64,000 bases of DNA, taken from positions 10,576 through 74,575 of the forward strand of contig JAZOLG010000051.1 of NCBI GenBank assembly GCA_045652765.1. Reading direction: 5' to 3'. A program made the translations under genes and the position numbers. The notes under the pieces were generated by a model. That model saw only the letters and a list, made by a program, of their open reading frames with translations. It had not been told where the DNA came from and did not search any database. Positions 6,972-12,994 of this stretch are shown here, piece after piece. Each line of letters opens with the position of its first letter. Positions within the stretch are counted from its first letter, which is position 1. Origin of the DNA: Bacilli bacterium (GTDB lineage Bacteria > Bacillota_I > Bacilli_A > ML615J-28 > CAG-313).

Positions 6972-7490
6972 ATGAAAACAAATCAAGTAGAAAATAAAGT
7001 AACTAAATTGACATATTTTTATGTATTTAGTTTTGTTGCTATTTTTGTAGCATTAGTTTTATTTTTAGCATTATATTTTATTAAACCTTTTGCTTATAAG
7101 AAAATTGAAGATTTACCACAAATTGAAGCATCTGAAGTTGCTACTAAACATATCAATGAAGCTGGTACTCAAACATCTTATTATGTATTAATTTACAATA
7201 AAAACAATCCTGTAAATGAATTAATTGAAGAAACTGTTTTAGAATATGCAAATCTAGTACGTAAACAAGATAAAGATGGTAAATTAGCTAAAATTTATTT
7301 ATTAGAATATACTGCCGAAAATGAAACACTTATTAAAGCATTAGACTCAAAAATTGTTAATATAGATACATGCCCAGTTTTAGTAAAAATTTCTAATCAA
7401 AAAGTTGCTAGTGGTGGATTAGATTTGACAGTATCTGATATTAATGATTGTCTTGGTGATTTAATCTACGATAATACAAAAGAAAAATAA
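6972..7490 (+). CDS. Membrane-anchored thioredoxin-like paralog lacking CxxC
   Basis: N-terminal TM helix; YYVLIYNKNNPVN and CPVLVKISNQKV align by eye with the upstream protein. Confidence 0.5.
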   Translation: MKTNQVENKVTKLTYFYVFSFVAIFVALVLFLALYFIKPFAYKKIEDLPQIEASEVATKHINEAGTQTSYYVLIYNKNNPVNELIEETVLEYANLVRKQDKDGKLAKIYLLEYTAENETLIKALDSKIVNIDTCPVLVKISNQKVASGGLDLTVSDINDCLGDLIYDNTKEK

Positions 7491-7511
7491 ACCTGCAATG
7501 CAGGTTTTTTT
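7488..7511. terminator. Bidirectional intrinsic terminator
   Basis: AAACCTGCA-a-TGCAGGTTT followed by T-tract, between convergent genes. Confidence 0.75.
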
Positions 7512-7854
7512 ATTTATCGATACACTCAAATGTTTTACACATAGATTCATGATGTGGTTTAGCACCTGGTCTATTGTGTGTTTCTTTTATTTCAATCTTA
7601 TCAGCATGGCATTCAGAATCTTTTTGAAATACACAGTTTTCTACATCACAATAAACATTTGTCTCACGTTTTGGATATTCTTCTAAATCACCAATTTCGA
7701 AAAAAAAGTTAGAATGATTTTTTGGCACGTAACTTCGGCACAATGTTTCTGATTTTGAAAAAGAATGTGGTCCATCAACACTAATTGCTTTTCTTGAACA
7801 CAGTGATCCACAATTATAATGACATTTAGTTACATCACAATTTAGTTTTGGCAT
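7510..7854 (-). CDS. DUF1540 domain protein (two Cys-rich repeats)
   Basis: Start moved to MPKLNC after RBS GGAGGA; repeats CDVTKCHYN..C...I.V and CDVENCVFQ..C.A..IEI, ending CKTF. Confidence 0.8.
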   Translation of the reverse strand: MPKLNCDVTKCHYNCGSLCSRKAISVDGPHSFSKSETLCRSYVPKNHSNFFFEIGDLEEYPKRETNVYCDVENCVFQKDSECHADKIEIKETHNRPGAKPHHESMCKTFECIDK

Positions 7855-7931
7855 ATTAATTCCTCCTATATTTGCTATTTTTATTATATCCAATATTTGC
7901 AAGCTTATACAAAAATAAAAAACTATATTAG

Positions 7932-7960
7932 TTGACAATTTAATAAAAATAGTGTAGAAT
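7932..7960 (+). promoter_or_regulatory. Sigma-A promoter of the tRNA pair
   Basis: TTGACA (7932-7937), 17 bp spacer, TAGAAT (7955-7960). Confidence 0.8.
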
Positions 7961-7971
7961 AATAAGGCAAT

Positions 7972-8062
7972 GGAGTAGTACTCAAGAGGCTGAAGAGGTG
8001 CCCCTGCTAAGGGTATAGGTCGGGAAACTGGCGCAAGGGTTCAAATCCCTTCTACTCCGCCA
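7972..8062 (+). tRNA. tRNA-Ser(GCT)
   Basis: GGAGTAG/CTACTCC acceptor stem, anticodon loop CT-GCT-AA, long variable arm, GGTTCAAATCC, encoded CCA. Confidence 0.97.
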
Positions 8063-8065
8063 ATT

Positions 8066-8142
8066 GGTCCGTTGGAGAAGCGGCTTAACTCACATGCCTT
8101 TCACGCATGCATTCACGGGTTCGAATCCCGTACGGATCACCA
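8066..8142 (+). tRNA. tRNA-Glu(TTC)
   Basis: GGTCCGT/ACGGATC acceptor stem, CATGC-CT-TTC-AC-GCATG anticodon arm, GGTTCGAATCC, encoded CCA. Confidence 0.97.
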
Positions 8143-8440
8143 TTTTATGAAATCTGTAAGTCTTCTGATTGAAGGCTTATTTTTTTAATTATATAGGCTA
8201 TTTTGCTTGAAATATAGTGAAATAGTCTATTTTTTATACATTTATGAAATATTTAGATTTAAAGACTAATAGTTGTATTTACAACTATTGGAGACTGACC
8301 ACGGACTCGAACCATTAACTTACGGGATTCAAATTTTAGGTTCTGATGGGACTCGAACCTAAAAGAGATAATGGTGGAAATTAAATTAGCTTTAGTGTAT
8401 AATATAAGTGAAAGATAAATTAGAATTTGTTGGTGAGATA
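8141..8440 (+). repeat. Structured non-coding element, copy 1 (tRNA-Glu 3' end to GNAT start codon)
   Basis: Collinear similarity to 9681-9952, e.g. TTTTTATACATTTATGAAAyATTTAGATTTAAA, AACTATTGGAGACTGA, TCGAACCATTAAC, GAGATAATG, GTATAATA, AGAATTTGT. Confidence 0.9.
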
Positions 8441-8890
8441 ATGAACGAATTAACATATAAGAGAATTGTGAGTCAAGAAGATAAAGACATTTTTTTGATT
8501 AATGAAATTCATTCAAAACCTGAAATAAAAAAATATATTAGTATTGGAGATAATTATTTTAATTATGTGACTACCACTGAAAATGTATTTTTTTACAAAG
8601 TTTATAAAGAACGAAATTTAGTTGGAACAATTCATCTCGAAAAAAATGATAATATAATATATATGGATATTTTAATTTTTCCTGAATTTCAAAAGTATGG
8701 TTTAGGTACTAAAGTTATTAATGATATTAAGAATGATATCTTCAATCTTAGTTTTAAAAAAATTGAAGTTTCTATTGATGAGAATAATATCCCTTCATTA
8801 AGACTTTTTGAAAAAATGGGTTTTAAATTTGTGTCACAAGAAGATGAATTGAAAAACTATGAGTATTTGAAAACAATAAGGAACAAGTAA
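8441..8890 (+). CDS. GNAT family N-acetyltransferase (RimJ/RimL-like)
   Basis: IFPEFQKYGLGTKV acetyl-CoA motif; NIPSLRLFEKMGF; start placed at ATG 8441 after GGTGAG. Confidence 0.85.
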   Translation: MNELTYKRIVSQEDKDIFLINEIHSKPEIKKYISIGDNYFNYVTTTENVFFYKVYKERNLVGTIHLEKNDNIIYMDILIFPEFQKYGLGTKVINDIKNDIFNLSFKKIEVSIDENNIPSLRLFEKMGFKFVSQEDELKNYEYLKTIRNK

Positions 8891-9091
8891 AGAAAAAATA
8901 AGGAACAAATAAGGAACGAAATTATTGACTTTTGTTCCATATTTGGAGCAATTTTTTTATTTTCTATGGATATTTTAGTTTTTATTCAATTAAAGGGATT
9001 TGAATTCTTTTTTATTTAAAATAGTTGATAATTTAATTTAGGTATGATAAAATATAGTAGGAAAGTAGGAATTTCCAACAAGGAGGATATT

Positions 9092-9358
9092 ATGATTATT
9101 GAATTAAGAAAGAAATCACAAATCACGTTGCCAAAGGAAATTGTAAAAAATTTAAATTTACAAGAAGGAGATAAATTTGAAGTATCAATTGAAAATGGTA
9201 GTATTAAACTTGAACCTGTCGCTGTATACCCTAAAGAATATATATTAAAATTAGCAGAAGAAATCCAAGTATTGAGGGAGGATGTAAAATTCGAATATAA
9301 TACATTTAACAATGTAGATGATTTGTTAAAGAGCCTTAAAGATGATAGTAAGGAGTAG
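9092..9358 (+). CDS. AbrB/MazE-family antitoxin
   Basis: LRKKSQITLPKEIVKNLNLQEGDKFEV swapped-hairpin motif; RBS AGGAGG before ATG 9092. Confidence 0.85.
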   Translation: MIIELRKKSQITLPKEIVKNLNLQEGDKFEVSIENGSIKLEPVAVYPKEYILKLAEEIQVLREDVKFEYNTFNNVDDLLKSLKDDSKE

Positions 9359-9361
9359 CTT

Positions 9362-9625
9362 ATGTATAAATTAGCATACACTGAAAGATTTAAAAAAGCT
9401 TTTAATGATCTTACTAATAATGAACAAATTCAGTTTCAAAATAAAATGAAGCTGTTTGTGGAAAATATATTACATCCATCATTAAGAACAAAAAAGATAA
9501 AAGGCCAAAAAGATCTGTACGAAAGTAGTATAAATATGGATATAAGAATAATATGGTATTTCGAAAATGAAGAATTAATTATTTTAGTTGATATCGGCCA
9601 CCATGATATACTTAAGAAATTTTAA
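9362..9625 (+). CDS. RelE/YafQ-superfamily mRNA interferase toxin
   Basis: YTERFKKAF...HPSLRTKKIKG...SINMDIRII...DIGHHD; directly downstream of the antitoxin. Confidence 0.82.
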   Translation: MYKLAYTERFKKAFNDLTNNEQIQFQNKMKLFVENILHPSLRTKKIKGQKDLYESSINMDIRIIWYFENEELIILVDIGHHDILKKF

Positions 9626-9680
9626 AAAAGACTTATCGTCCCATACACCTTTTAAAAAGATAGATATCGTAGCAGTTAGG

Positions 9681-9952
9681 CATTTTTTGAAATCTATAGG
9701 TCTTCTTAAAAAGAGGATTTATTTTTTATTTTTGTAGGGTATTTTAGCCTATCATGGTTAGAATACCTTATTTTTTATACATTTATGAAACATTTAGATT
9801 TAAACACAATAGTTGAATATAACTATTGGAGACTGAGCATCGATTCGAACCATTAACGTACGGGACTTGAACCTATAGGAGATAATGTTGGAGAAAAAAT
9901 TGGTATTGTGGTATAATAGTTGTAACATAAATAAGAATTTGTAGGAGTATAT
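9681..9952 (+). repeat. Structured non-coding element, copy 2 (ends at methyltransferase start codon)
   Basis: Begins CATTTTTTGAAATCTATAGGTCTTC versus CATTTTATGAAATCTGTAAGTCTTC at the tRNA 3' end; same hairpin order as copy 1; about 27 bp shorter in the T-loop-motif region. Confidence 0.9.
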
Positions 9953-10738
9953 ATGAATCGCGTAAATAAAACACTATACATTCCCTTATACGGTAAGTCC
10001 TACGTAAGTAAAAAGGGATTGTTTCTTGAAGACAAAAAAGCTGAAGAAATATGGGATAAAGAAAGGTTTGAACTAAAGAAAAAATCTAAATCTAAATGGC
10101 TTGCCTATTATATGGGAATACGCTCTGCCGTGTTTGATGAATGGCTTAATCAAAAAATGATTGATTTACAAGATGCTGTAATTATACATATTGGTTGCGG
10201 AATGGATAGTCGCGTTTTAAGAATTGGAACAAGTAATCACAAGTGGTATGATGTTGATTTTGCTGAGGTTATTACAGAAAGAAGAAGATACTATTTTGAG
10301 TCTGAGTACTATCAAATGATTGCAGGTGATGCAAGAGATTTTGCATGGCTCACAAAGATTAAGGAAAACGAGTCTGCCATCATCGTTATGGAAGGTGTAA
10401 GTATGTACTTGACCGTAGAGGAAATGCAAAAATTAGTAGATAGACTTTGTTCTCATTTCAAAAGTATTAACCTTTTAGTAGATTGCTATACTTCTTTAGC
10501 CGCTAGAATATCAAAGCATAGAAATCCGATAAATGATGTGGGAGTAACTGATGTTTATGGATTAGACAATCCACAAGTCTATCAGAATGATAAACTTACT
10601 TTTATAAAAGAACATACAATGATACCTAAAAAATATATTGATGAATTAAAAGGGTTTGAAAGGTTCGTTTTTGCAAAGCTTTATGCAGGAAGTTTCTCAA
10701 AAAAGTTGTATCGTTTATTTGAATATGAAAAGAATTAA
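9953..10738 (+). CDS. Class I SAM-dependent methyltransferase, LCM/TcmP-like
   Basis: TLYIPLYGK, IHIGCGMDSR, WYDVDFAEVI, IVMEGVSMYL. Confidence 0.85.
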   Translation: MNRVNKTLYIPLYGKSYVSKKGLFLEDKKAEEIWDKERFELKKKSKSKWLAYYMGIRSAVFDEWLNQKMIDLQDAVIIHIGCGMDSRVLRIGTSNHKWYDVDFAEVITERRRYYFESEYYQMIAGDARDFAWLTKIKENESAIIVMEGVSMYLTVEEMQKLVDRLCSHFKSINLLVDCYTSLAARISKHRNPINDVGVTDVYGLDNPQVYQNDKLTFIKEHTMIPKKYIDELKGFERFVFAKLYAGSFSKKLYRLFEYEKN

Positions 10739-10769
10739 AAGACAAAATCTAATTTAAAAAAGGTGAAGT

Positions 10770-11411
10770 ATGAATAAAGTAATAGAAAATGCAAAAGAAT
10801 ATGTATTTAAGTTCTTTCAAAATCAAGAAGGAAGTCATGATTATGATCATACAATGCGCGTATATAAGATGGCGAAATATATAGCATCTTTTGAAAATGC
10901 TAATATGGAAATTGTAATACTAGCTGCATTACTACATGATGTTGATGATTACAAAGTTTCACCAGAAACTTATCATAATATGACTAATGCGAAACAATTT
11001 TTATATGATAATAGTGTTGATGAAAACACCGTACGATTAATTTGCGATATTATTAAAGATGTAGCATTTAAGGGAAAAGATACTAAAACTCCAAGTACTA
11101 TTGAAGGCAAAATAGTGCAAGATGCCGATCGGTTAGATGCTCTTGGTGCAGTAGGTATCGCAAGAGCGTTTACTTATGGAGGTAATAAAAATAGAATATT
11201 ATATGATAAAGATATTTTACCTAATCTTGATATGAAAGAAGAAGAATATCGTAATCATGTTTCTACTACTATAAATCATTTTTATGAAAAGTTATTCAAA
11301 TTAAAAGATCTCATGAATACTTTAACTGCCAAAAAACTTGCGGAAAGTCGTGATAAATATATGAGAGAATATATTGATAGATTTAAAAAAGAGTGGGAAG
11401 GATTGATTTAA
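10770..11411 (+). CDS. HD-domain phosphohydrolase (YedJ-like)
   Basis: HDYDHTMRV, AALLHDVDD, VQDADRLDALGAVGIARAF, HFYEKLFKL. Confidence 0.9.
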   Translation: MNKVIENAKEYVFKFFQNQEGSHDYDHTMRVYKMAKYIASFENANMEIVILAALLHDVDDYKVSPETYHNMTNAKQFLYDNSVDENTVRLICDIIKDVAFKGKDTKTPSTIEGKIVQDADRLDALGAVGIARAFTYGGNKNRILYDKDILPNLDMKEEEYRNHVSTTINHFYEKLFKLKDLMNTLTAKKLAESRDKYMREYIDRFKKEWEGLI

Positions 11412-11426
11412 CAAGTTTATTTATTT

Positions 11427-11455
11427 TTGACAAGTCGTTAATTTTATGATATAAT
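11427..11455 (+). promoter_or_regulatory. Consensus sigma-A promoter for the symporter gene
   Basis: TTGACA, 17 bp spacer, TGnTATAAT. Confidence 0.8.
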
Positions 11456-11530
11456 TTTGTTATTAATTTAATTAATTGCATGTAATATTCTGTTTTTCAA
11501 TAGAAATTTAAGAAAAAGGAGATTCACTTT

Positions 11531-12994
11531 ATGATGAATTTTATTAAAATTGGTATGATTTTAGCAAATGGAGATTGGGATTTTACTTTAGCTAATTATG
11601 GACCAGTTTGGTCATTTATGGTTCAATTTGGCCTTTTATTAATTTTTTTAGTTTTGGGTAATGTTTTAAGAAGAACTATACCTTTATTTAGAAAATTATT
11701 AGTACCATCAGCTCTATTAGGTGGGGCGTTATTATTAATTACTAACTTTATATTTAAACAATTTGATCGTGGTTTTGTTGATAACAGATTAATGCAAGTA
11801 ATTACTTATCATTGCTTAGCAATTGGATTTGCGGCTATGTCGCTTAAAACAGAAAAAAGCAAACACAAAACAAATAAAGCTCAGGTGTTAGAATATGGCG
11901 CTTTACAAGGTGGCACATATATGTTACAAGCATTTATTGGGCTATTAATTACAATTGTATTATTTTTAATTACAAGATATGGTGATCAAATAGTGTCATA
12001 TGTTTGTGGTGTTATTTTGCCGCTTGGATTTGGTCAAGGTCCAGGAAATGCTTTAACTTGGGATGTAAATTATACTAATATACCTGCTGCACAATTTGCC
12101 GGTAATGGGAGCTTCGGTTTATCACTAGCTTCTATTGGTTTTGTTGTTGCATCTGTGTTTGGCGTTTTATATATTAACATTCATAAAAAACGTGGTACAT
12201 TAAAAATCAGAGAAGCTAATCAATATGCGCGTGAATTAGAAGAACTAGAAGCAAGTATCGTTGAAATTCCTGATAATGAATCAGTTGATAAATTTACAAT
12301 CCAACTTGGTTTTGTTGCGATTGCGTATGCTTTATCATTTGGACTTATGTATTTGCTTGGTATTTTATCAGATTTTACTAATAGTATTGCTTGGGGATTT
12401 AACTTCTTGTGGGCATCACTTGCTGCTATGTTAATTAAGTTTGTTGTAAAACATTTACGTAAACGTAATATTATGCACCGACAATATATTAATAATTATC
12501 AAATGGATCGTATATCAGGATTCTCATTTGATTTAATGATTGTTGCAGGTGTTGCGGCAATTGAAATTAATGATATTAAAAACTATATTATTCCGATTAT
12601 ATTATTAACTATTGCTGGTATGATCGTAACATTAATATACATTCGTAAAGTAGCCAAAGAATGTTTTAAAGGATTTGAACATGAATTTTTCCTAATGAGT
12701 TTTGGTACGTTAACAGGTACTGCATCAAATGGTATGATTCTTATGAAGGAAGCTGATCCAGAATTAAAAACTCCTACTTCAAGTTTATATATTCTTTCAA
12801 ACTTCCCAGCTATGGTAATGATTGCACCATTACTATTCTTACTAGGCTTTGCTGGCAAATCGTTCCAAAATGCTATAATCGCATGTGGTATATTCTTTGT
12901 ATTATGGATTGCGTACAGTATCTTCTTATTTAGAAGAAGAATTTTCAAGAAACGTTACAAAGATAAACCAGTAATTGAATGGAAAGAAGAATAA
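11531..12994 (+). CDS. Sodium/glutamate symporter (GltS-like) family transporter
   Basis: About 12 TM helices; LLVPSALLGG, LGFGQGPGNA, FGTLTGTASNGMIL...DP. Confidence 0.75.
   Translation: MMNFIKIGMILANGDWDFTLANYGPVWSFMVQFGLLLIFLVLGNVLRRTIPLFRKLLVPSALLGGALLLITNFIFKQFDRGFVDNRLMQVITYHCLAIGFAAMSLKTEKSKHKTNKAQVLEYGALQGGTYMLQAFIGLLITIVLFLITRYGDQIVSYVCGVILPLGFGQGPGNALTWDVNYTNIPAAQFAGNGSFGLSLASIGFVVASVFGVLYINIHKKRGTLKIREANQYARELEELEASIVEIPDNESVDKFTIQLGFVAIAYALSFGLMYLLGILSDFTNSIAWGFNFLWASLAAMLIKFVVKHLRKRNIMHRQYINNYQMDRISGFSFDLMIVAGVAAIEINDIKNYIIPIILLTIAGMIVTLIYIRKVAKECFKGFEHEFFLMSFGTLTGTASNGMILMKEADPELKTPTSSLYILSNFPAMVMIAPLLFLLGFAGKSFQNAIIACGIFFVLWIAYSIFLFRRRIFKKRYKDKPVIEWKEE

Follow-up and report, generated by a model that had tools for sequence, protein, structure and literature searches.

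A 64,000-nt stretch of DNA from a Bacilli bacterium (the window) carries, behind a pair of tRNA genes, two full copies of a non-coding element of 270-300 nt, here called the leader. The leader is the head of small accessory-gene cassettes that are stacked behind tRNA CCA ends in low-G+C, small-genome bacteria, and we infer that the cassettes are added at a CA core by serine recombinases. All window features given below lie on the plus strand. The tRNA pair consists of tRNA-Ser(GCT) (7972-8062; ARAGORN; Rfam tRNA, 50.9 bits) and tRNA-Glu(TTC) (8066-8142; ARAGORN and Rfam). The latter is the anchor, and its terminal CA (8141-8142) is the junction core. Leader copy 1 (8143-8440), identified by BLAST against its own genome and relatives, runs to the ATG at 8441 of the first cargo gene, a GNAT acetyltransferase (8441-8890; Pfam Acetyltransf_1, E=1.9e-11). 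A truncated variant leader, the E2 type, follows at 8920-9091; its left ~70 nt, including the junction, are absent here. It retains a terminator (8932-8951), a T-arm-like box (8995-9004), a promoter-like site (9025-9053) and a Shine-Dalgarno (SD) sequence. Behind it lies the second cargo, a toxin-antitoxin pair assigned by Pfam and composed of a MazE/AbrB-type antitoxin (9092-9358) and a YafQ/ParE-type toxin (9362-9625). This cassette closes with a conserved right end of 57 nt, the 'class 2' end (9626-9682), whose last two bases are again CA (9681-9682). Leader copy 2 (9683-9952), recognized by alignment to copy 1 and by BLAST, precedes an LCM-type methyltransferase (9953-10738) and an HD-domain hydrolase (10770-11411), both assigned by Pfam. 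Because of the truncated third leader, the window holds three cassettes rather than two. No cassette-end module was found in the window 3' of 11411, behind the third cargo. The next gene (11531-12994) is conserved within the genus and is 84.9% identical to its counterpart in G001 (map of locus L075; genomes, contigs and loci are cited by G, C and L numbers).

Copies 1 and 2 agree in 83% of their aligned columns, copy 2 having a single deletion of 24 nt, and a BLAST search of the own genome with copy 1 retrieved copy 2 at E=3e-37. An earlier interpretation of this DNA, the sequence-only reading, had described an element of ~300 nt at 8141-8441 that recurs at 9681-9952 with its parts in the same order, and both the alignment and the search agree with it. 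A consensus scan of positions 7800-11600 found four terminator-like sites, compared with 0.8 +/- 0.9 in shuffled sequence. Two of these are in copy 1, one is in copy 2 and one is the terminator of the truncated third leader.

The anatomy of the leader was derived from 41 aligned copies, and from up to 60 copies for some features. The left module contains the CA junction, two Rho-independent terminators (hairpins A and B), a conserved block termed box 1 and three T-arm-like direct repeats. The right module contains a predicted extended -10 promoter and a conserved 5' untranslated region (5'UTR) with ribosome binding site, up to the cargo start codon. The boundary between the modules lies at about 8349-8378 in copy 1. 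At least 90% of the copies retain the C of the junction, all have its A, and ~12 conserved bases follow directly 3' of the CA. Hairpin A (8156-8187 in copy 1, 9696-9728 in copy 2) folds together with its U-run in 38/41 copies, including several compensated variants. Hairpin B (8193-8237 and 9734-9777) folds with its U-run in 37/41 copies, and 6 of its 13 consensus pairs have compensatory changes on both sides. The G-U pairs found on the plus strand favour an interpretation as RNA terminators, read in the cargo direction. Box 1 (8236-8263 and 9777-9804) is the most conserved block, with one 18-mer exact in 45/60 copies, and is similar to the ~30-nt repeats found ahead of many junctions. In 3/4 copies examined, box 1 also contains an inverted match to the first bases of the leader, at a distance of 88 nt from them. 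Base pairing between the two ends of the leader was unconvincing by eye.

The three direct repeats (8303-8313, 8324-8334 and 8349-8359 in copy 1) are spaced 22-24 nt apart, and each reads like a tRNA T-arm in reverse complement. In the second, 13 nt match the T-arm of tRNA-Glu in inverted orientation. Copy 2, with its deletion, has only one such box (9863-9873). The promoter-like site follows at 8375-8403 in copy 1 (-10 at 8398-8403) and at 9889-9917 in copy 2. Its -10 hexamer is invariant or nearly so in the 41 copies, and many have TG upstream. The conserved 5'UTR motif (8415-8430 and 9927-9942) is followed in copy 1 by the SD sequence. As judged from this anatomy, the terminators would shield a cassette from read-through of the tRNA or of the previous cassette, and the leader promoter and 5'UTR would drive expression of the cargo. 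The proposal of a tRNA-anchored cassette array with a repeated modular leader, insulating terminators and a promoter of its own is retained, with these functions predicted from the anatomy.

Two other identities for the leader were considered and rejected. A tRNA or pseudo-tRNA on the minus strand is called by neither ARAGORN nor Rfam, and the T-stem pairing is not kept in variants on inspection of the alignment. A miniature inverted-repeat transposable element (MITE) does not fit an element that has only a weak internal inverted pair, sites that are not scattered and a single orientation. No Rfam family covers the leader, as a search of positions 7000-12500 at E<=1 returned the two tRNAs and a sub-threshold small RNA match on a terminator. 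The structure named hairpin C in the sequence-only reading is a perfect or nearly perfect palindrome of 20-22 nt that occurs at one position in 9/41 aligned copies (8268-8289 in copy 1, 9808-9827 in copy 2). It is optional and may be a small independent insertion.

The leader was found well beyond this locus. The own assembly (G000; 1.45 Mb, 65 contigs, 28.5% G+C, about 90% complete) contains four full copies by BLAST. Of the two copies outside the window, one directly follows the final tRNA in a cluster of five (C31), and the other directly follows a second tRNA-Glu and precedes a GrpB gene (C7); leader fragments occur on C45 and C65. Leader matches were obtained in 41/61 relatives, 30/36 in family f1 and 10/24 in family f2, and many of these have several, 1.2-11 kb apart. 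An even class-wide sample had the leader in 16/18 genomes of f1, 3/16 of f2 and 0/265 genomes of 27 other families. The leader is restricted to two families of one order. No match was found in plasmid and phage collections. Leader-negative relatives have a plain terminator behind tRNA-Glu. Many contigs of the relatives end in or next to leaders, which indicates that the repeat fragments assemblies and that the copy numbers are underestimates. A tRNA-His gene at C7:24174-24249 also stands at a contig end, and the contig breaks just after its CCA and a T-run.

Twenty regions from 15 relatives were mapped with an nhmmer profile of the four own copies, together with tRNAs and open reading frames (ORFs). 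The leader directly abuts a tRNA gene in 16/20 fetched regions; the other four have none in the stretch fetched. The arrays follow one pattern, in which a tRNA CCA end is followed by a leader, 1-10 genes and the next leader, with a spacing of 1.2-11 kb. Most cassettes have 1-3 genes. Among the ORFs between consecutive leaders, 77/84 are co-oriented with the leader, and 4/7 of the opposite ones are serine recombinase genes. Junction classes were counted over 80 distinct junctions. The left flank is a tRNA gene in 26/80, representing nine species (Gly-TCC 8, Glu 7, His 3, Leu-GAG 3, and Ala, Lys, Arg, Leu-CAA and Ser-CGA 1 each), and a conserved module of 2-4 tandem ~30-nt repeats in 22/80. The class 2 end that stands before window copy 2 was found at 6/80 junctions, a remnant of a tRNA-Gly 3' end also at 6/80, the end of a conjugative element at 2/80, an end beside a 323-aa recombinase gene at 2/80, variants at 15/80 and a contig end at 1/80. 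Nearly all left flanks at the 80 junctions end in CA. The tRNA-Gly remnants sit partly in arrays anchored on other tRNAs, and the other classes are without a tRNA remnant.

The cargo is diverse. Ninety array proteins match 80 Pfam families, of which the commonest are HTH_3 (XRE-type; 11), GNAT (5), DUF4143/AAA_14 ATPases (4), Resolvase (4) and sigma-70 region 4 (4), followed by methyltransferases (3), Fic (3) and YafQ toxins (2). Cassettes are often multi-gene, so that the single-gene cargo envisaged by the sequence-only reading has to be given up. Its expectation that cargo varies at the tRNA-Ser/Glu locus was correct. Behind the same tRNA pair and the same upstream DUF1540-like gene, different cargo was found in G000, G016, G009 and G035, a difference between genera.

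Cargo blocks are 86-98% identical between genera, and also between the two families. Examples are G003 and G015 (94.2% over 3.3 kb), f1 and f2 (93.7%), and G000 and G016 (98.3%). The same genomes have elongation factor P (EF-P) genes that are only 74-81% identical, and for the native gene behind the window's array the identity within the genus is 84.9%. Because the identity of the cargo exceeds that of both, cassettes move horizontally, as the earlier interpretation had supposed. The toxin-antitoxin cassette of the window is 92.6% identical in G002, where it lies in a different context, and a full E2 leader stands before the same pair in L093. In a linkage comparison the class 2 end was linked to the upstream cargo and unlinked to the next leader. 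An ordinary local duplication of a native terminator and promoter downstream of the tRNA would suit two copies that lie 1.5 kb apart. It is practically excluded by the nine tRNA species, the 41/61 genomes, the unrelated cargo and the cross-genus identity of that cargo. The leader is neither confined to this locus nor tied to invariant cargo, and one old local duplication does not explain it.

Pairs of leaders with shared neighbours were compared for the position of breakpoints. In 17 pairs from different genomes that share upstream sequence, identity is 85.5% over the last 160 nt ahead of the junction (background 40.6%) and stays at the background level over the left 175 nt of the leader (70.6 vs 70.5). 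The drop in identity is a step at the CA|TT junction. In the pairs that share downstream cargo (8/781), the right module is 83.5% identical against a background of 67.7%, whereas the left module is at background (69.9 vs 70.1). High identity begins at the third T-arm-like repeat in three pairs. Truncated leaders often end just after this repeat (profile matches end at 223-240 in many loci), and the E2 variant shares only the part from this repeat onward. The step at CA|TT together with the breaks at the third repeat indicates two breakpoint hot spots, with the left module inherited apart from both neighbours. The sequence-only reading had placed the end of similarity, and the exchange of genes, at the start codon. 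This position was not upheld, as promoter and 5'UTR travel with the cargo and the breaks fall at CA/TT and at the third repeat.

The main rival explanation is homologous recombination alone. The leader would then be portable homology for RecA-mediated exchange, and arrays would grow by Campbell-type insertion of one-leader circles. The mosaic left modules favour this explanation and the step-like junction disfavours it. Neither the upstream nor the downstream cargo is linked to the left module, the types of hairpin A and hairpin B are combined in a mosaic fashion, and in L060/L068 identity climbs within the leader from 88-92% to about 100%. An exchange by homology would also suit the scarcity of the 323-aa recombinase described below, which has close copies in just 9/61 genomes. 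On the other hand, the step falls exactly at CA|TT in independent pairs (conjugative element, toxin-antitoxin and Fic cassettes), elements that bear recombinases end at the same CA dinucleotide, and the first leader copy starts exactly at the tRNA CCA end. Leaders are ~70% identical on average and would thus be a poor RecA substrate. We consider homologous recombination unlikely as the sole cause.

The same breakpoints raise the possibility that the left module alone is the mobile unit, a MITE-like or 'non-coding cassette' between two cores that homes to CCA and to cassette ends, the genes being ordinary island genes. The left module does behave as an independent unit, truncated leaders stop immediately behind the third T-arm-like box, right modules also occur with a different left half in the E2 leader, and the first bases of the leader pair inversely with box 1 in the copies noted above. 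However, this pairing is lost where box 1 has an alternative form, every occurrence of the element is at a tRNA end or a cassette junction, its orientation towards the cargo never varies, and no target duplication was seen. A solitary left module of this kind is improbable.

Recombinase genes were examined in the own genome and its relatives. The own genome has nine Resolvase-domain matches and three Phage_integrase-domain genes (C41, C49 and C65). None is on the contig of the window, in agreement with the sequence-only reading, which had found no recombinase in the window. Its suggestion that a recombinase would co-occur was borne out elsewhere, by serine recombinases that abut the junction in relatives and by an intact gene on own contig C16 (1456-2424). 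This gene belongs to a 323-aa serine recombinase with Resolvase and Recombinase domains and no zinc ribbon, whose closest solved structure is 3g13, the catalytic domain of a putative conjugative-transposon recombinase. The gene lies in divergent orientation, about 70 nt from the junction, in G003, in G016 (as a pseudogene) and on C16 of the own genome. The C16 copy is 98% identical to that of G003 and stands beside another E2 leader. In G003, leader, GNAT gene, 323-aa recombinase gene and junction form a unit of 2 kb. In G021, the upstream region of the recombinase gene is joined to the middle of a leader. The recombinase is 86-94% identical to copies in other genera. A wider family of ~320 aa is common in Firmicutes metagenomes, where the closest cluster has 233 members, mostly on contigs of 1-2 kb.

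A second type of serine recombinase is carried by an element that ends at the same core. A conjugative element of ~29.7 kb encodes a coupling protein, a VirB4-like ATPase and a 599-aa large serine recombinase with a zinc ribbon (G016:C32:65360-95077 and G026:C178:6987-36703; loci L091, L092 and L098-L100). The two copies come from different genera and are 95-96% identical, indicating recent transfer. In both, the recombinase gene at the end of the element is followed by CA and then by the leader, and the left junctions also read CA. The same end is joined to an E2 leader in G002, G008, G015 and G033. In G033 a recombinase of the 599-aa type is followed by the toxin-antitoxin cassette of the window itself. 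G029 has a prophage with two large serine recombinases upstream of a leader. Among the loci examined, no unoccupied attB or empty site of the conjugative element was found.

A smaller serine recombinase of ~200 aa with a Resolvase domain only occurs in 37/61 relatives, often convergent and just after a truncated leader. It was located at C54:388-993 in the own genome, at 522-1500 in L101 (G003:C19), 1591-2400 in L102 (G007:C88), 4121-4711 in L105 (G009:C3) and 371-961 in L074. Two inverted, palindrome-like sites of 14-16 nt, about 150 bp apart, lie beside this gene and before the next gene. The ~200-aa protein was rejected as the array enzyme because, with an inverted site pair of its own, it looks like the invertase of a local promoter switch.

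Another class of enzyme was also considered, such as a tyrosine recombinase with arm sites or the host Xer system, for which the ~30-nt repeats and box 1 would be accessory sites and the serine recombinases mere tenants. Direct repeats of one motif do occur on both sides of the junction, like attP arms, and the serine recombinases are patchy in distribution. However, none of the three own Phage_integrase genes adjoins an array, and Phage_integrase is not among the 25 commonest families of the 90 array proteins. A Y1 transposase is lacking as well, with 0 matches to PF01797 in the own ~90%-complete genome, and inspection by eye detected no dif-like 11-6-11 site at the junction. Such an enzyme therefore appears very doubtful as the cause of the arrays.

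The explanation that we favour, and regard as somewhat probable, is that cassettes mostly without a recombinase have accreted in tandem at tRNA ends, a process that serine recombinases probably drive in trans, and that recombination within leaders reshuffles them. Units consisting of leader, cargo and right end would be added or exchanged by site-specific recombination at the CA core. The serine recombinases would act mostly in trans. The 323-aa short serine recombinase may constitute an autonomous mini-cassette of 2 kb, and the large serine recombinases of the conjugative element may use the same CA core. A second hot spot at the third T-arm-like box would uncouple the left module and reshuffle arrays, to which general homologous recombination between leaders probably adds. 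The sequence-only reading had spoken of a modular platform for capture and expression. The modular expression format stands, whereas dedicated capture machinery stays presumptive.

A more far-reaching version, which we put forward only tentatively, is a serine-recombinase counterpart of the integron. The 323-aa enzyme would treat every junction of the form X-CA/leader alike and would insert, excise and reshuffle cassettes behind nearly any tRNA CCA. The left half would be a gene-less 'insulator cassette' between two cores, and the T-arm repeats would mimic the tRNA target.

Several observations weigh against accretion by serine recombinases. Close copies of the 323-aa recombinase are far rarer than the leader (9/61 genomes compared with 41), and only three of them are intact, the rest being fragments or interrupted by stop codons. 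G009, a near-complete genome with arrays, has no match to the 323-aa recombinase at E<=1e-10; it has two Resolvase-domain proteins of 546-550 aa and two of ~200 aa. The left end of the conjugative element rests on two genomes only. Large serine recombinases need about 50 bp, not 300, and the tandem ~30-nt repeats before many junctions bear a closer resemblance to the accessory or arm-type sites used by recombinases of other classes. The linkage tests comprise few pairs (8 and 17), which are non-independent and come from draft assemblies. The unlinked left module and its mixed hairpin types count here too, and frequent homologous recombination would yield the same picture of the left module. 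Because the draft assemblies often break at leaders, artefacts of assembly may account for some of the joins. A search of the loci examined revealed neither circular forms nor excision scars nor empty sites. Twenty public runs labelled bovine or gut metagenome hold parts of positions 7900-11600, with a share of at most 0.46. In runs X1, X5, X6 and X10, some joints between the two copies skip sequence or go back, and the summed depth is much higher on leaders. Because the leader is a multi-copy repeat and the contigs are short, these joints and depths are not evidence of circles, excision or copy number.

The arrays were compared with known systems. Integron cassettes are promoterless and are read from a common Pc promoter. 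The arrays resemble integrons in having small co-oriented cassettes of unrelated accessory genes (GNAT, toxin-antitoxin, methyltransferases), a repeated structured separator and a recombinase that lies outside the cassettes. Unlike integrons, they have no IntI, attI or attC, each cassette has its own predicted promoter and insulation, and the anchor is a tRNA end. The sequence-only reading had set the element apart from attC and integrons, and this distinction holds, as there is no attC and no IntI beside the array and the separator is a 270-300-nt leader with terminators. It is equally distinct from the IS200/IS605 type, for which the Y1 transposase is lacking. The pdif modules of Acinetobacter plasmids are small recombinase-less modules with short Xer sites that are served by enzymes in trans. 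They are similar in their mobility in trans, but no dif-like site was seen here.

Closer parallels exist among elements that accumulate behind RNA genes. In Firmicutes, cis-mobilizable elements (CIMEs), which are remnants of integrative and conjugative or integrative and mobilizable elements, accrete in tandem at tRNA 3' ends. They lack integration and transfer genes, keep att-type ends and are mobilized in trans or cis, and newer elements integrate into the att site of the resident element (PMC5704250). The present arrays likewise begin at a tRNA 3' end, and their units are bounded by CA/TT junctions with conserved end modules, with Resolvase in only 4/90 array proteins. The differences lie in the ends and anchors. 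CIMEs, in the part of that source used here, have a duplicated tRNA end of 15-50 bp, whereas the present units have a module of 270-300 nt with two terminators and a promoter, and a duplicated tRNA end was seen at just 6/80 junctions. Furthermore, at least nine tRNA species serve as anchors here, and most units have 1-3 genes.

The ssrA islands of Dehalococcoides and the SCCmec composites of staphylococci have CcrB-type serine recombinases (PMC3146451). They share with the present arrays the serine recombinases, tandem islands 3' of an RNA or housekeeping gene, many units without an integrase and a repeated junction. In the portion of that article drawn on here, these islands have one target gene, a 20-bp repeat and a size of 10-60 kb, whereas the present cassettes have many tRNA targets and are kb-sized. 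The junction-linked 323-aa recombinase is without a zinc ribbon, and its relation to Ccr consists of shared domains. Tycheposons of Prochlorococcus carry tyrosine recombinases in 910/937 cases, often together with replication genes, and have partial tRNA flanks (bioRxiv 10.1101/2020.12.28.424599). They too are anchored on tRNAs with repeated integration at the same site, newer elements push older ones inward, and remnants and cargo-only pieces occur; large serine recombinases are a minority there. A conserved leader with terminators and promoter is not described in the sections of the tycheposon preprint consulted. No description of a leader of this kind was found in open-access texts, supplements aside.

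If this explanation is correct, a whole order of uncultured gut bacteria with genomes of 1.0-2.5 Mb keeps much of its flexible gene pool in a standard format, namely a cassette with its own insulator and promoter that is docked behind tRNA genes and exchanged across genera. The pool would span regulators, acetyltransferases, methyltransferases, toxin-antitoxin pairs, Fic proteins and lipoproteins. These results point to a little-known way to collect, insulate and express swapped-in genes. The 25-nt junction, the 323-aa recombinase and the autonomous 2-kb mini-element would together offer a testable system for the making and moving of recombinase-less cassettes, and would bear on the origin of cassettes, a question that integrons share. 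The leader would also be a practical marker for accessory genes in fragmented metagenome assemblies and would explain the assembly breaks there.

Some minor observations were made on other contigs of the own genome. A second type of array occurs at C45:800-6100 and C47:~1100. It has three 12-nt sequences that resemble a tRNA 3' end and terminate in CCA, each followed by a terminator, and its cargo includes antitoxin-like, RhuM-like and Fic genes. No tRNA matching the 12-nt sequence was found in the incomplete own assembly. At C45:4227-6030, GNAT, P-loop kinase-like and DinB-like genes are joined head to tail by only the ~20-nt 5'UTR motif. The kinase-like gene (98% identity) and the DinB-like gene (94% identity) of G016 are each preceded by a full leader. 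The head-to-tail arrangement may have arisen by deletion of leaders, or it may mark an additional site of joining. Upstream of the GNAT gene lies a stretch that is rich in G+C for a genome of 28% G+C (C45:4040-4190; about 1320-1480 of L007). This stretch is possibly a structured RNA, and it has no Rfam match at E<=0.1. Finally, a leader fragment at C45:7412-7488 is 96% identical to positions 102-178 of copy 1 and stops at the CCA-like end of its first T-arm-like repeat. The adjoining sequence is the one found on C47 behind the tRNA-end-like repeat of the second type of array, which hints that internal CCA-like positions may also serve as junctions.

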